10,770 nucleotides of DNA from Candidatus Krumholzibacteriota bacterium (GTDB taxonomy: Bacteria > Krumholzibacteriota > Krumholzibacteriia > LZORAL124-64-63), in contig JBDLKA010000116.1 in assembly GCA_039714075.1 (NCBI GenBank), positions 1-10,770 on the forward strand, read 5' to 3'. Within the stretch, counting starts at the first letter, position 1. Every line of letters starts with the position of its first letter. Shown here piece after piece: positions 6,001-9,000 of this stretch. The position numbers were made by a program.

Positions 6001-9000
6001 CGGCTGAACTCAACGCGCCGGGTTTCGCGGCCGGGGGCGGTCATCCGCAGTTCGGCGAGTTGGCTGTTGGACTTCGAGGTCAGGTCCTCGGTGCAGACCG
6101 GGCAGGAGAACCTGATCTTGCTGCCCGGGGTAAGATTCCGTTCCACGGATTTGTCGCAGATGAACTTGTAGTTTCCGGGCTGAGGACTGAGCAGGATCAT
6201 GCCCTTTTTCTTGCGGTAGCTGATGACCAGCAGGATTTTCACGCTGGGATTCAGGACAGCCTGGCAGTGGGGGCACGTGAAGACGTTTTTCATCATCCTA
6301 CCTCTGTGTTTTTGCACGCGTTTTGGTACGAACAGCTCAGTCGGTTCCCGGTGACACGCCGCCGTCTTTGTCCTTCTCTCCGCCGGAGAGAAGCCCCCAC
6401 CCGAAAACGGCTCCGAACAGAACCATCAGCAGGGGGTTGGAGGTGATGTTTCAACCACCGCCCCGGCAGGTAATCCATTTGTTGATTCCGTATCCGGCCG
6501 CCCCACCCAGCACGGGTCCGGCCACCATCCGCAAGCGCATCCAGTTCAAGCGCATCCAGTTCATCCGGTTCTCTCCATTATGGCATCCGCGGGCGGGCCG
6601 CGGTGAAAAAACTCGTCCTACTCACAATTATCCCGAAGTTGAGGGCGATCCGCAAGAGGGTGATGGACCCCGGAGCGATCTGATTGTAGGTTTTTTCGGG
6701 ACAGGCATACGAAGATCAAGGGATTGGTGAGGGCACATGAAGATGAAAATCCTGGGCTGTCTGGGCGGTCTGCTGCTGATTCTGGGTTGCGGAGTCCCCG
6801 AACACGGGGACAGCAAGGCGATCGACCGTGCCGCGATGCGCGCGGAAGCGGCGCCGAGAATCATGCCGGCGGAGCGGGAAGATCAGCTGCTCCGGGAGGA
6901 AAAAGACCTGCCGACCGCGGTCAGGATCGGCCGGTGGGCCCGGCGCTACCGGGACGGCGAAGGGATCGAATACCGCTTCGGACTGGCGGAGGGCGGTTAC
7001 GTGAAAGAGGGCGATCTGGTCCGCGACGACCGGCAGGACTGTGTCAGCCTGATGTACCGGGTGACCGAACTGGCGCGGGCGGAATCCCCCCGGGACGCGG
7101 TGGCCTGGGCCCTGCGCACCCGGTTTGCCGGCGCTCCGCTCGACTCGCTGGTCGATGACCGGGGCCGGGTGGACTACGACCGCCCCGAACACCTGGACTA
7201 CAGCCTGGACATGATCCGCTCGGGCCATTGGGGGCGGGACATCACCGGGGAATTGACCGGCGCGGCGCTCGACAGCGCGGGCAGCTCCCGCTATCCGGCC
7301 GGCAGCTTCCGGACCGTTCCCGAATCCGGTCTGGTCGAAGCGGAACTGAAGGAAGGCGACATCGCCTGGCTGATTCTGGATCCCGCCCACGAAGCGGGCG
7401 GCAGGCTGCGCCGCGAATACGGGCTGGTCGTCGGGCACATCGGCATCGTGATAAAGGAAGAAGGCCGACCCTGGCTGGTGCACGCCGCCAGCAGCGGCCT
7501 GGACCGATGGTACGAAGGAGGCACCGTGGTTGCGGTGCCCCTGGCGGTTTATCTGGAGCTGGTGGAGAAGTATTCCGCGGTCATGGTCACCCGGTTCTGA
7601 CCGGTCCGGTCAGGGTGTCAACGTCACGGTAACCGTGTCGGCATGGCTTTCCCCCCCGGCAATAGCCGTGGCGATGATTTCCGTGGAGAAACTGTCCATG
7701 ACCGGGGGCGTGTCCCAGGTCACCGTCCAGTCGTCGGTGAGCGTGGCCGGCAGGGTGGTGGCCGTATCGCTCCAGGCGATGTCCACCGTTACCGATTCCA
7801 CCGGCACGGAGAAGAGATCGGCAAAGGTCCTGACCTGGATTTCCTCCGCGGTGTTTCCATTCACCAGATCCTCGTCCCGATGTGTCACGATCACGACCGG
7901 CGTCCGGACCACGTCGAGGTCGATGGAGGTCACGGCCGTATTGCCGCCGGCAACGGCGGTGGCGGTCATGGTCAAGGTGGTGTCGATGTCCGGAATGGGG
8001 GCGGTCCAATCGGCGGACCAGTTGGAATCACCCGAAACAGCCAGGGTGTCGGTCCCGACATGGACGATGACCTCCTCCAGCGCGGCCACGCCCAGGATTC
8101 CCGACGCGGTGCCGGAGAAACTGTAGGTCCTGTTGGGGGTGAAGGTCTCTCCGGCAACAGGGTTGGTGATGGTCACGGCCATCTGCGTCACCGTCACGGT
8201 AATGGCGGTGGTAACGGTTTCCAGGCTGTCGAGGTCGGTGTGGGCACCGTACCAGGCCTTGGCTCGAAGGGTCAGCTGGGTGTCGGTCGTGAAGAGAGGC
8301 ACATTCCAATCGTGGGACCAGGTGTCGGTCCCGGTGACATCCACGAAACCGTTGCCGTCCCCTCCATCGAACCCCACCAGCGCGACCGAGCCCTCTCCCG
8401 ACCCAACCGTACTTGATCCCCGGACCTGGAAGGAGGTCCCGCCCAGGACAACATCGCCGTCCCGGGGTGCCCAGAAGGAAACTTCCGCGGGTTGGGTGAC
8501 GTGGATCACGTAGTCGGTCAACACCCCGGAGTGGGTCCAGTCGTTGCGGTACTGGACGTGGATGACCTTGTGGCCCGGTGTGGGACTGAGGTTGATTTCG
8601 ATCTCCGGGGCGTAGGTAATCCAGGGGGCGCCGGTGAAATCCGCGCTTTCGGAGTAGCGCATTTCGGTGGCGACGGCGGATGAGGTCCCGGTAACGGTGG
8701 ACTGCTCGGTAATGTGGTCTTCCTCGAGATCCAGACTGAAGGTGACATTTTCCAGCAAATCGGGCACCACCTGGAGTTCGACCTCTTCGTCGAAGCCGAA
8801 ATCACCCCGGAACTGGGCCCGGATGAATTGAGGATTGGCCGAATCGCTCAACTCGTACCCGGTGAAGGTGTCGGCGACGGGGACCCAGGGTGTGGTGGCG
8901 GTGTCGGCCCACTCGGGGAAGAAACGCATGTCCAGCACACCTTCGGTGGGGACCAGCAAGTCGACAGTCCGTTTCGACAAGGTTTCGGTTTCCGAATCGA

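Follow-up and report, generated by a model that had tools for sequence, protein, structure and literature searches.

A table-11 ORF list of the 10,770-nt stretch of Krumholzibacteriota DNA analyzed here (the window) gives a 37-aa gene on the minus strand (6451..6564) that ends at a TGA. Does this codon terminate a short peptide, or is it read as selenocysteine (Sec) within a longer protein, and what would such a protein do? The first-pass annotation took the 37-aa call to be the first half of a 75-aa protein read through UGA, and the frame bears this out, running from 6564 to 6340 with U at codon 38. When TGA is translated as U, the product is MNWMRLNWMRLRMVAGPVLGGAAGYGINKWITCRGGGUNITSNPLLMVLFGAVFGWGLLSGGEKDKDGGVSPGTD (Table 1). 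The product of this 75-codon gene is very probably a small membrane selenoprotein with two helices. The recoded frame, its homology to other proteins, the pairing of Sec with Cys in alignments, the selenocysteine machinery and the gene neighbourhoods were each observed directly, whereas Sec insertion at UGA codon 38 is inferred.

A conserved frame on both sides of the TGA

When the genomes of the taxonomic family were searched in six frames (E ≤ 0.01), 57 of 91 gave a match, and each of the 58 places listed contains an in-frame TGA. The earlier claim that relatives carry the TGA in one column is upheld in the 30 loci that were aligned. Across the phylum Krumholzibacteriota, a 30-member profile matches 58 of 208 genomes, all confined to the family of the source genome (57 of 90 genomes plus the source genome itself), with none among the 117 genomes of the other eight families. 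All 30 loci fetched have C-x4-U-x-[ILVM]-[TS]-[SG]-x-P in a single column, in agreement with the initial description of a Sec five residues after an invariant Cys. The motif originally proposed was drawn slightly too narrowly; the broader form for the Sec proteins is C-x-[GS]-[GS]-[GTA]-U-x-[ILMV]-[TS]-[SG]-[NS]-P. Residues G16, G20, G24, C33, U38, P44, G51, G55, W56, S60 and G61 are invariant in the 30 Sec forms.

The 22 codons downstream of the TGA evolve as coding sequence. These 66 nt contain no in-frame stop in any of 29 sequences, the mean pairwise difference is 0.315, 0.172 and 0.416 at the first, second and third codon positions, and 2270 of 5342 differing codon pairs are synonymous. 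A sequencing-run search for the stretch returned no RNA run among the matches listed; it was matched in two DNA runs of one study, one of which may be its source.

AlphaFold2 models the 75-aa protein at low confidence (mean pLDDT 64.1, pTM 0.32) as a helix-loop-helix, consistent with the two-helix architecture first put forward. The 11-residue loop (residues 33-43) between the two predicted helices bears Cys33-x4-Sec38 followed by I-T-S-N-P, and the arrangement of this hairpin in the membrane is a prediction. Short membrane-anchored selenoproteins are familiar from eukaryotes, where SELENOK and SELENOS have one transmembrane helix, a single Sec near the C-terminus and a SECIS element in the 3'-UTR. 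The 75-aa protein is like them in its short length, predicted membrane anchor and single Sec, with no homology implied.

Table 1. Features of the Sec-form gene and its neighbours in the window
Feature	Position	Strand	Basis or remark
Sec-form CDS, 75 codons	6340..6564	-	Translation with TGA=U; ATG 6562-6564, last sense codon 6340-6342
In-frame TGA, predicted Sec codon, residue 38	6451..6453	-	One column in 30/30 aligned loci
Cys33 codon, partner of Sec38 in C-x4-U	6466..6468	-	Invariant in 30/30 Sec forms
Terminal stop, also TGA	6337..6339	-	Read from sequence; TGA in 24/30 relatives
Putative Shine-Dalgarno-like GGAGAG, 6 nt 5' of ATG	6571..6576	-	Inferred by eye from sequence
Predicted helix 1, residues 4-32, Gly-rich	6469..6555	-	AlphaFold2; mean hydropathy of residues 13-31, 0.81
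Predicted helix 2, residues 44-60, then subfamily motif SGGE	6385..6435	-	AlphaFold2; mean hydropathy 1.89
Candidate SECIS-like stem-loop	6394..6443	-	nt +11 to +60 from U of UGA; MFE -23.9 kcal/mol, z -1.73
Core hairpin of candidate stem-loop	6406-6427	-	+27 to +48; apical loop GUUC, +36 to +39
131/132-aa protein with two CPxC knuckles (Zn-ribbon-like)	5898..6296	-	Sub-threshold Zn-ribbon Pfam/NCBIfam matches; no curated family
Octaheme tetrathionate-reductase-family cytochrome	4258..5754	-	TIGR04315 575.6 bits (cut-off 375); Pfam Cytochrome_cB 5.5e-60
Divergent upstream gene, weak AmiA-like match	6737..7600	+	PF07313 22.1 bits, below cut-off 27

Relationship to DUF6132

The protein had been presented as a new family, but homology searches place it elsewhere. 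An exhaustive HMMER (phmmer) search yielded 84 matches at E ≤ 1e-3. The full-length matches are Cys forms (E 4e-7 and weaker) bearing G-C-x-S-G-x-C-P-I-T-S-N-P, and 9 of 10 homologues scanned belong to Pfam DUF6132 (PF19628) with scores above its gathering cut-off of 23.2 bits. Identity between the 75-aa protein and the best Cys forms is 52-57% over a 52-residue core. Comparison by hhalign of a profile of 30 Sec forms with one of 34 Cys forms gave a probability of 99.7% (E 1.3e-26) over 66 columns, and Sec falls on the second Cys of C-x4-C. In a merged alignment of both groups, all 58 rows have C33 and C/U38, and conservation is ≥90% at G36, T41, P44, G51 and G55. By sequence homology, this is the Sec version of the widespread Cys-containing DUF6132 family and not a new family.

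The reported lack of a Pfam or NCBIfam model holds for the 75-aa protein taken alone, which has no PF19628 match at E ≤ 1 in a Pfam scan and no NCBIfam match at E ≤ 1; for Pfam it fails at the level of the family, which is homologous to PF19628. Its one chance-level Pfam hit, Phage Tail Collar (16.9 bits against a cut-off of 24), was rejected as a match to Gly-rich sequence. None of the NCBIfam selenoprotein models (Tso, Sao, UXX-star, hypothetical DG/DW/DF and others) matched; membership in UXX-star, Tso or Sao was rejected on this ground and on the position of Sec, 37 residues from the C-terminus. Among the Sec forms of the phylum, 21 of 30 match PF19628 below threshold (best E 4.1e-4) and none reaches the cut-off. 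Because homology by phmmer and hhalign goes together with a PF19628 score below the cut-off, we file the Krumholzibacteriota protein as a divergent homologue and not as a formal Pfam member: judged by sequence, it is a Sec-containing branch of DUF6132 that the current Pfam model misses. A word-index search of protein sequences gave no match to the single protein, as no candidate had enough words in common with it. Nine stand-alone Cys forms scanned against NCBIfam at E ≤ 0.1 gave only two chance-level matches (Myrrcad and GvpT), while a DUF6132-thioredoxin fusion, P0017, matched NCBIfam thioredoxin models through its thioredoxin domain.

The Krumholzibacteriota branch shares with the PF19628 Cys forms its length class, the helix-loop-helix plan, Gly-rich helices and the loop G-C-x-[SG]-G-x-C/U-x-I-T-S-N-P. 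It differs from them in having Sec for the second Cys, W30, T32 in place of G, and an end of G-W-x-L-L-S-G-G-E plus an acidic tail. The two also differ in their surroundings, with a Zn-ribbon protein and an octaheme cytochrome next to the Krumholzibacteriota genes instead of thioredoxin, rhodanese or ArsR. The remark that no Cys form was seen holds within the phylum as far as the 30-member profile goes, which found none there, but full-length Cys forms were recovered elsewhere by phmmer.

The range of the Sec forms is also wider than the one family from which they were first known. A DNA pattern scan located Sec forms outside that family: 23 of its 51 matches are real members (59.7-86.3 bits, with the rest at ≤18.9 bits), and 11 of these 23 lie outside Krumholzibacteriota in at least three other lineages, namely Delongbacteria, Leptospirales/Spirochaetota and Dorea. 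These Sec forms are 64-74% identical to Cys forms, and those of two Spirochaetota genomes pass the PF19628 cut-off, at 33.1 and 23.5 bits.

Literature searches on DUF6132 and on selenoproteins of Krumholzibacteriota found no related paper. A 2026 inventory lists 119 prokaryotic selenoprotein families (PMC13188914, Table 1); neither PF19628 nor the C-x4-U motif occurs in that table, or in one supplementary file of BSepDB. The bacterial CxxU/UxxC selenoproteins (PMC13188914) are similar in having a UGA aligned with Cys, a nearby Cys, Sec machinery and a candidate hairpin after the UGA, whereas the 75-aa protein has C-x4-U spacing and a predicted small membrane hairpin instead of a thioredoxin fold.

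Decoding of the UGA

A stem-loop had been said to follow the UGA in each relative, and one is indeed present in every minimum-energy fold of the relatives' loci, at positions that differ between phyla. Its conservation in register is moderate only, however, and RNAalifold returned no consensus structure for 29 sequences. In-register pairing amounts to 69-75%, against 36-63% when the sequences are slid (in 29 relatives, 69.1% of cells against 40-51%), and the pairing observed in the core hairpin was reached by 31 of 500 shuffles. At column pair 33-42 of the stem-loop, CG occurs 10 times, GC four times and UA twice; covariation is weak. The mean z for the 60 nt after the Sec codon is -1.33 in 29 Krumholzibacteriota and -1.08 in 11 other Sec forms versus -0.31 in 78 Cys forms, a contrast that compares related sequences and stretches of unequal composition (mean G+C 0.63 for Krumholzibacteriota and 0.47 for Cys forms). 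An Rfam scan of positions 5800-6800 gave only a chance lncRNA match (E 0.029, below gathering). The evidence for a SECIS function of the stem-loop after the UGA is moderate.

The source genome has SelB (327.8 bits; 354.7 summed), SelA (448.1), SelD (363.8) and tRNA-Sec (68.5), all above curated cut-offs, and its SelD gene carries an in-frame TGA of its own. Since SelB exceeds its cut-off in 81 of 91 family genomes, with or without a Sec-form gene, co-occurrence with SelB does not discriminate. In other phyla, a Sec-machinery gene was found in four of five genomes checked; one Delongbacteria metagenome-assembled genome (1.6 Mb) had neither SelB nor SelA.

Could the TGA simply be a true stop, leaving a 37-residue one-helix peptide and, in the conserved frame downstream, a separate small gene or a relic? 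Gene callers do give exactly the 37-aa table-11 ORF, and public protein sets contain both first halves of 33-45 aa (P0011, P0015, P0107) and second halves of 34-36 aa that begin at an internal Met (P0094, P0095, P0106). In 57 of 91 genomes, however, the halves are always adjacent and in frame with only the TGA between them, and in the source sequence the second half has neither a start codon nor a ribosome-binding site for separate translation. Once joined, the halves align over their whole length with Cys forms that carry no interruption and put the TGA on an invariant Cys, and the Sec machinery of the source genome is complete; we regard a true stop as very unlikely. That the codon is instead read as Trp, Gly or Cys, whether by a reassigned code or by near-cognate read-through, seems to us scarcely credible. 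A public call from a close relative (P0088, 68 aa) does have W at this position, so some pipeline has used TGA as Trp, but the same genes end in a TGA stop in 24 of 30 cases. A TGA that still serves as a stop 30-40 codons past the recoded one argues against a reassigned code, and the other long ORFs of the window are normally bounded under table 11. The site is moreover the invariant Cys of C-x4-C, a classical Sec/Cys exchange, in a genome that has tRNA-Sec, SelA, SelB and a Sec-containing SelD. With good confidence, we favor as the best overall explanation a UGA codon 38 read as Sec in a divergent DUF6132 branch with a putative Cys/Sec redox loop. On this reading, the codon would be decoded by the host SelA, SelB, SelD and tRNA-Sec, probably aided by the stem-loop within 60 nt after the UGA.

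Gene neighbourhoods and possible function

In Krumholzibacteriota, the Zn-ribbon-like gene lies immediately 3' of the Sec-form gene in 19 of 30 relatives' loci, and no terminator-like site was found between the two on the minus strand of the window. A protein atlas look-up places this neighbour only in unnamed clusters, from Krumholzibacteriota, Acidobacteriota and Bacteroidota. The octaheme cytochrome gene is downstream on the same strand at 25 of the 30 loci, and the AmiA-like gene holds the same position at 17. No adjacent thioredoxin gene was found at any of these 30 loci. The Cys-form loci have other companions: a thioredoxin-cluster gene within three genes in 36 of 79, mainly on the same strand, along with rhodanese (18), an ArsR-type gene immediately upstream (17), DUF302 (13), HMA (8) and OsmC (5). 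Members of the thioredoxin cluster have a hydrophobic N-terminus in 28 of 42 cases, frequently with a lipobox. Sec forms outside the phylum have similar settings. That of Dorea is followed directly by genes for a DsbD_TM (CcdA-like) protein and a TlpA/AhpC-like thioredoxin, an operon of CcdA and thioredoxin in common with Clostridia Cys forms, and those of Delongbacteria are located between thioredoxin and OsmC/ArsR genes, with OsmC at both loci.

Two DUF6132-thioredoxin fusions were identified, P0017 and P0063. Their thioredoxin domain is C-terminal to helix 2; were both helices to span the membrane, domain and loop would be on opposite sides. A search for longer fusions found one protein, encoded on a 1.9-kb contig, in which DUF6132 follows a partial ABC_tran domain, a finding too thin to interpret.

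In the membrane domains of CcdA/DsbD and the transporters MerT and MerF, Cys pairs in or at the membrane pass electrons or soft ligands to and from partners with a thioredoxin fold or an HMA domain. The DUF6132 proteins, Sec forms included, have no detectable sequence similarity to either group and consist of only two helices. Most likely, the protein is a membrane hairpin whose short loop holds a redox-active Cys/Sec pair, which partners with a thioredoxin fold would recycle. Cys33 and Sec38 would form a reversible selenenylsulfide at the membrane surface, and the Cys forms a disulfide. The resulting redox or ligand-binding centre would be served by thioredoxin-fold proteins which, in other lineages, are encoded by adjoining or fused genes, many of them for exported lipoproteins or accompanied by CcdA. 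For Krumholzibacteriota, this link is carried over from those lineages because its own neighbours differ, and we give redox cycling of Cys33/Sec38 with thioredoxin about an even chance. Candidate substrates would be an oxidant, a soft metal(loid), or reactive sulfur or selenium species.

A different role for the same selenoprotein and DUF6132 homologue would be to bind a soft metal(loid) or chalcogen species and pass it on, either through the membrane or along it, as paired-Cys mercury transporters do, with thioredoxin only keeping the pair reduced. Several neighbours of the Cys forms fit such a carrier (ArsR, rhodanese, DUF302 and HMA, in the numbers given above), as does the position of the Sec-form gene upstream of the tetrathionate-reductase-family cytochrome in 25 of 30 Krumholzibacteriota loci. 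In addition, a MerT-like 'putative mercuric transport protein' and the YeeE/YedE thiosulfate transporter are already known selenoprotein families (PMC13188914, Table 1). Yet no transporter family in Pfam or NCBIfam, MerT and MerF included, shows sequence similarity, a protein with only two short helices would hardly make a channel except as an oligomer, and the commonest neighbour is thioredoxin, not HMA. The recurrence of OsmC, a peroxide-reducing family, among the Cys loci and at both Delongbacteria Sec loci points to oxidant defence rather than metal(loid) transfer. On balance, we consider a carrier unlikely and retain the redox pair as the preferred reading. A bolder version of the latter, which we offer as speculation with little expectation that it is right in full, would make DUF6132 an undescribed minimal membrane thiol/selenol redox module, a two-helix hairpin whose C-x4-C/U loop is catalytic at the membrane surface (for example, as a reductase of lipid-phase oxidants or a relay for sulfur, selenium or metal species) and is recycled by CcdA-fed exported thioredoxins. 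The Sec version in Krumholzibacteriota would then have been rewired to the octaheme cytochrome and Zn-ribbon protein as a Se-dependent accessory of respiratory sulfur-compound reduction.

Recognition of this gene would add one selenoprotein family to the prokaryotic inventory. No NCBIfam model for the C-x4-U family was found, so that without a model for the read-through public data contain the gene either split into two calls or mistranslated. The Sec forms also provide a first functional handle for the uncharacterized and widespread DUF6132, as the exchange of Cys for Sec marks the second Cys as reactive and probably catalytic. Neighbourhoods with thioredoxin, CcdA, rhodanese, ArsR and OsmC, like the fusions to thioredoxin, suggest a part in thiol redox chemistry at the membrane or in stress, and the function of DUF6132 is accessible to test in culturable Bacteroidota or Clostridia.

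Conservation of the frame across the UGA

Under translation table 11 the open reading frame covers only the first 37 codons of a 75-codon frame in the window. A six-frame search found a matching frame in 57 of the 91 genomes of the same taxonomic family, and all 58 matches contain an in-frame TGA, in agreement with the first-pass annotation, which had also placed the TGA in one alignment column. It does occupy a single column in all 30 fetched loci, within C-x4-U-x-[ILMV]-[TS]-[SG]-x-P, and G16, G20, G24, C33, U38, P44, G51, G55, W56, S60 and G61 are invariant among them. With a 30-member profile, 58 of 208 Krumholzibacteriota genomes are positive (57 of 90 from the family plus the window's genome), and none of the 117 genomes in the phylum's other eight families is. 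The 66 nt 3' of the TGA have no in-frame stop in any of 29 distinct sequences, with a +1-frame stop in 26 of them. Differences per codon position in this segment are lowest at position 2 (0.172), then 1 (0.315) and 3 (0.416), and 2270 of 5342 differing codon pairs are synonymous. Conservation of the frame with its TGA is beyond chance. Since the terminal stop is also TGA in 24 of 30 relatives, this codon is not generally reassigned.

The N-terminus contains a perfect tandem duplication of a 15-bp unit (AACTGGATGCGCTTG twice on the coding strand), which doubles the residues NWMRL. The closest relative, locus L002 (MNWMRVRMVAGP...), has one copy, and the window protein is therefore 4-5 residues longer than its kin.

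Features of the window, with the SelD gene of the same genome
Feature	Position	Strand	Remarks
ECF sigma factor gene	1271-1894	+	overlapped by the next ORF
241-residue ORF	1876-2601	+	no Pfam or NCBIfam match
Beta-CASP metallo-beta-lactamase-fold ribonuclease	2707-4107	+
Tetrathionate-reductase-family octaheme cytochrome	4258-5754	-	TIGR04315, 575.6 bits; downstream, same strand, in 25/30 loci
131/132-residue protein with two CPxC knuckles (Zn-ribbon gene)	5898-6296	-	directly downstream in 19/30 loci
Predicted selenoprotein frame	6564 (start of ATG) to 6340-6342 (codon 75)	-	reads MNWMRLNWMRLRMVAGPVLGGAAGYGINKWITCRGGG-U-NITSNPLLMVLFGAVFGWGLLSGGEKDKDGGVSPGTD
In-frame TGA, codon 38	6451-6453	-	predicted Sec codon
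Terminal stop, second TGA	6337-6339	-
15-bp tandem duplication	6532-6561	-	codons 2-11
GGAGAG motif	6 nt 5' of the selenoprotein ATG	-
Weakly AmiA-like gene		divergent	upstream of the selenoprotein gene in 17/30 loci
SelD gene	G000:C31:20863-21777	-	outside the window

The genome encodes SelA (448.1 bits, exceeding the curated cut-off), SelB (327.8 bits, 354.7 summed; cut-off 242), tRNA-Sec (68.5 bits; cut-off 47) and SelD (363.8 bits, above the curated cut-off), which has one in-frame TGA and is probably itself Sec-containing. SelB exceeds its cut-off in 81 of the 91 family genomes, including genera without the selenoprotein gene, and co-occurrence with the machinery is thus uninformative within the family.

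A stem-loop had been reported after each UGA. In the 69 nt from the window's UGA, nt +11 to +60 form a stem-loop (MFE -23.9 kcal/mol, z -1.73) that includes a 9-bp hairpin at +27 to +48 with loop GUUC. A hairpin is indeed present in every relative's minimum-energy fold, but its register is not constant and RNAalifold gave no consensus structure for the aligned post-UGA sequences; in other phyla it lies elsewhere, as in Delongbacteria (+12 to +32, loop GUG). When the window's structure is imposed on an alignment of 29 sequences, pairing reaches 69.1%, versus 40-51% when the structure is slid, and the third-codon-position pair 33-42 occurs as CG (10), GC (4) and UA (2). Its 6-bp core is 75.3% paired versus 36-63% when slid, a pairing reached by 31 of 500 shuffles. 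As a control, we folded the 60 nt that follow the Sec codon or the matching Cys codon. Sec forms had a mean z of -1.33 in Krumholzibacteriota (29 sequences) and -1.08 elsewhere (11 sequences), and the 78 Cys forms one of -0.31 (Mann-Whitney p 7e-6, overstated because the sequences are related). These results give moderate support to a SECIS-like element after the UGA, and are not proof of one.

Relationship to DUF6132 and Sec forms in other phyla

The window protein itself has no Pfam or NCBIfam match except a chance-level one to Collar, as first noted, and a word-index protein search also returned nothing. The accompanying claim of a new family does not hold, and Cys forms, of which none had been seen in the first search, do exist. 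An exhaustive HMMER search of 1.84 billion representatives gave 84 matches at E<=1e-3 (best 4.2e-7), of which 37 were retrieved for inspection. Apart from two truncated Sec-form calls (P0011 and P0015), these proteins are uninterrupted, 56-181 residues long (mostly 56-106), and have G-C-x-[SG]-G-x-C-[PA]-I-T-S-N-P flanked by two hydrophobic Gly-rich helices. A Pfam model does exist for the homologues: DUF6132 (PF19628) exceeds its cut-off in nine of ten scanned matches, the tenth, P0017, combining DUF6132 at 22.2 bits with a fused thioredoxin domain. Profile-profile comparison of 30 Sec forms with 34 Cys forms gave 99.7% probability (E 1.3e-26, 66 columns) and aligned the Sec column with the second Cys; C33 and C/U38 are invariant in the merged 58-sequence alignment. 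The window protein shares 52-57% identity with the best Cys forms over a 52-residue core, and 21 of the 30 Sec forms match PF19628 below threshold (best 4.1e-4). By sequence comparison, it is a divergent Sec-bearing DUF6132 homologue beyond the reach of the current Pfam model.

We also scanned the GTDB set, with one genome per species, for the DNA pattern TGY-N6-GGN-NNN-TGA-NNN-ATH-ACN-WSN-AAY-CC. The 51 matches, about the number expected by chance on our own estimate, were divided cleanly by the Cys-form HMM into 23 at 59.7-86.3 bits and the others at 18.9 bits or less. Twelve of the 23 high-scoring matches are of the Krumholzibacteriota type, and 11 are canonical DUF6132 proteins with U replacing the second Cys: Delongbacteria-type (L100, L129, L135 and L138, and also L131 and L134, which are labelled otherwise), Leptospirales/Spirochaetota (L101, L105 and L122) and Dorea (L117 and L145). 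These 11 are 64-74% identical to Cys forms over the 52-residue core, and two exceed the Pfam cut-off despite the internal stop (33.1 and 23.5 bits). Five of these genomes were checked for Sec machinery: Dorea and two Spirochaetota gave SelB, and one of two Delongbacteria gave SelA; the second Delongbacteria genome, a 1.6-Mb MAG, gave no SelB or SelA match. The count of 23 is a lower bound, because the pattern required I-T-S-N-P.

Gene neighbourhoods, topology and a possible redox role

Neighbours of 79 Cys-form loci from many phyla were clustered using the three nearest crude ORF calls per side, and cluster representatives were named by Pfam. A thioredoxin cluster, which also took in CcdA-like and thioredoxin-reductase-like proteins, occurs at 36 loci, mostly on the same strand; 28 of its 42 members have a hydrophobic N-terminal segment, often with a lipobox at its end. 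Other neighbours are rhodanese (18 loci), ArsR-type regulators (17, of which 13 are immediately upstream on the same strand), DUF302 (13), HMA (8), Crp/Fnr (6) and OsmC (5). Two proteins, P0017 and P0063, are independent DUF6132-thioredoxin fusions. Among Sec forms, Dorea has the order Sec-DUF6132, DsbD_TM (CcdA-like), TlpA/AhpC-like thioredoxin, seen also at the Clostridia Cys-form loci L162 and L215; Delongbacteria have thioredoxin(s), Sec-DUF6132, OsmC, ArsR; and the Leptospirales form adjoins a divergent MarR regulator and a methyltransferase.

Krumholzibacteriota surroundings (30 loci, 1.5-kb flanks) are unlike those of the Cys forms and of Sec forms in other phyla. The CPxC protein encoded next to the selenoprotein gene has an invariant C-terminal NFFG and belongs to no curated Pfam or NCBIfam family; its look-alikes in the atlas belong to unnamed clusters from Krumholzibacteriota, Acidobacteriota and Bacteroidota. 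On the minus strand, nothing resembling a terminator lies between the two genes. Elsewhere in the window, the 241-residue ORF is possibly an anti-sigma factor of the adjoining ECF sigma factor. The beta-CASP protein scores 346 bits against the NCBIfam type VII CRISPR Cas14 model, far under the cut-off of 800, and 280 against aCPSF1 (cut-off 580), and is probably an ordinary beta-CASP RNase.

AlphaFold2, with a 58-row alignment, predicts helices at 4-32 and 44-60 joined by a loop at 33-43 (mean pLDDT 64.1, pTM 0.32). Mean hydropathy is 1.89 for helix 2, which is clearly hydrophobic, and lower, at 0.81, for helix 1. Basic residues at the N-terminus and the Lys-rich tails of many Cys forms suggest an N-in/C-in topology with the loop outside. 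In the fusions the thioredoxin domain is C-terminal to helix 2; if both helices cross the membrane, this domain and the loop would lie on opposite sides. The second helix of P0017 (181 aa; about residues 40-60) runs directly into a lipobox-like L-A-L-S-G-C. The hairpin therefore may not be a simple two-span protein, and in P0017 it may substitute for a lipoprotein signal peptide on the thioredoxin domain.

The UGA, very probably recoded to Sec, lies in a conserved frame homologous to a C-x4-C family and corresponds to the second Cys, and DUF6132 is recurrently linked, by genome context and fusions, to thioredoxin-fold proteins and CcdA. Cys33 and Sec38, in a short membrane-surface loop, could form a reversible selenenylsulfide, which the thioredoxin-fold partners would reduce; Sec would stand in for the more reactive Cys, whether attacking or ligand-binding. 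The OsmC and MarR/ArsR neighbours suggest a role in oxidant defence, and rhodanese, HMA, DUF302, ArsR and the tetrathionate-reductase-type cytochrome point to a substrate based on sulfur, selenium or a soft metal.

Place among known selenoproteins

A 2026 review covering the prokaryotic selenoproteome gives domain identifiers and motifs for 119 families (PMC13188914); PF19628, 6132 and CxxxxU do not occur in its text. Its Table 1 includes membrane selenoproteins, among them a YeeE/YedE-family protein and a putative mercuric transport protein that resembles MerT, and the TIGR04315 octaheme cytochrome family, with GenBank-annotated selenoproteins (PMC13188914); the window's TIGR04315 copy has no in-frame stop. 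The searched text of one BSepDB supplementary file contains no DUF6132, PF19628 or 'membrane'. DUF6132 appeared in no relevant paper; subscription journals and NCBI's own records lay outside this search, and an earlier mention is possible.

Public records split or alter the protein. P0011, P0015 and P0107 hold the first half only, and P0094, P0095 and P0106 the second half only, starting at an internal Met. P0088, a 68-aa public metagenome protein closely related to the window protein, carries W in place of Sec, consistent with gene calling under a code in which TGA is Trp. The window gene is a well-supported, real predicted selenoprotein, and a new Sec-containing member of the known, uncharacterised DUF6132 family rather than a separate family. 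It corrects a systematic mis-annotation, adds to the selenoprotein list a small membrane protein whose C-x4-U spacing is unusual, and offers a redox hypothesis for DUF6132 that can be tested.
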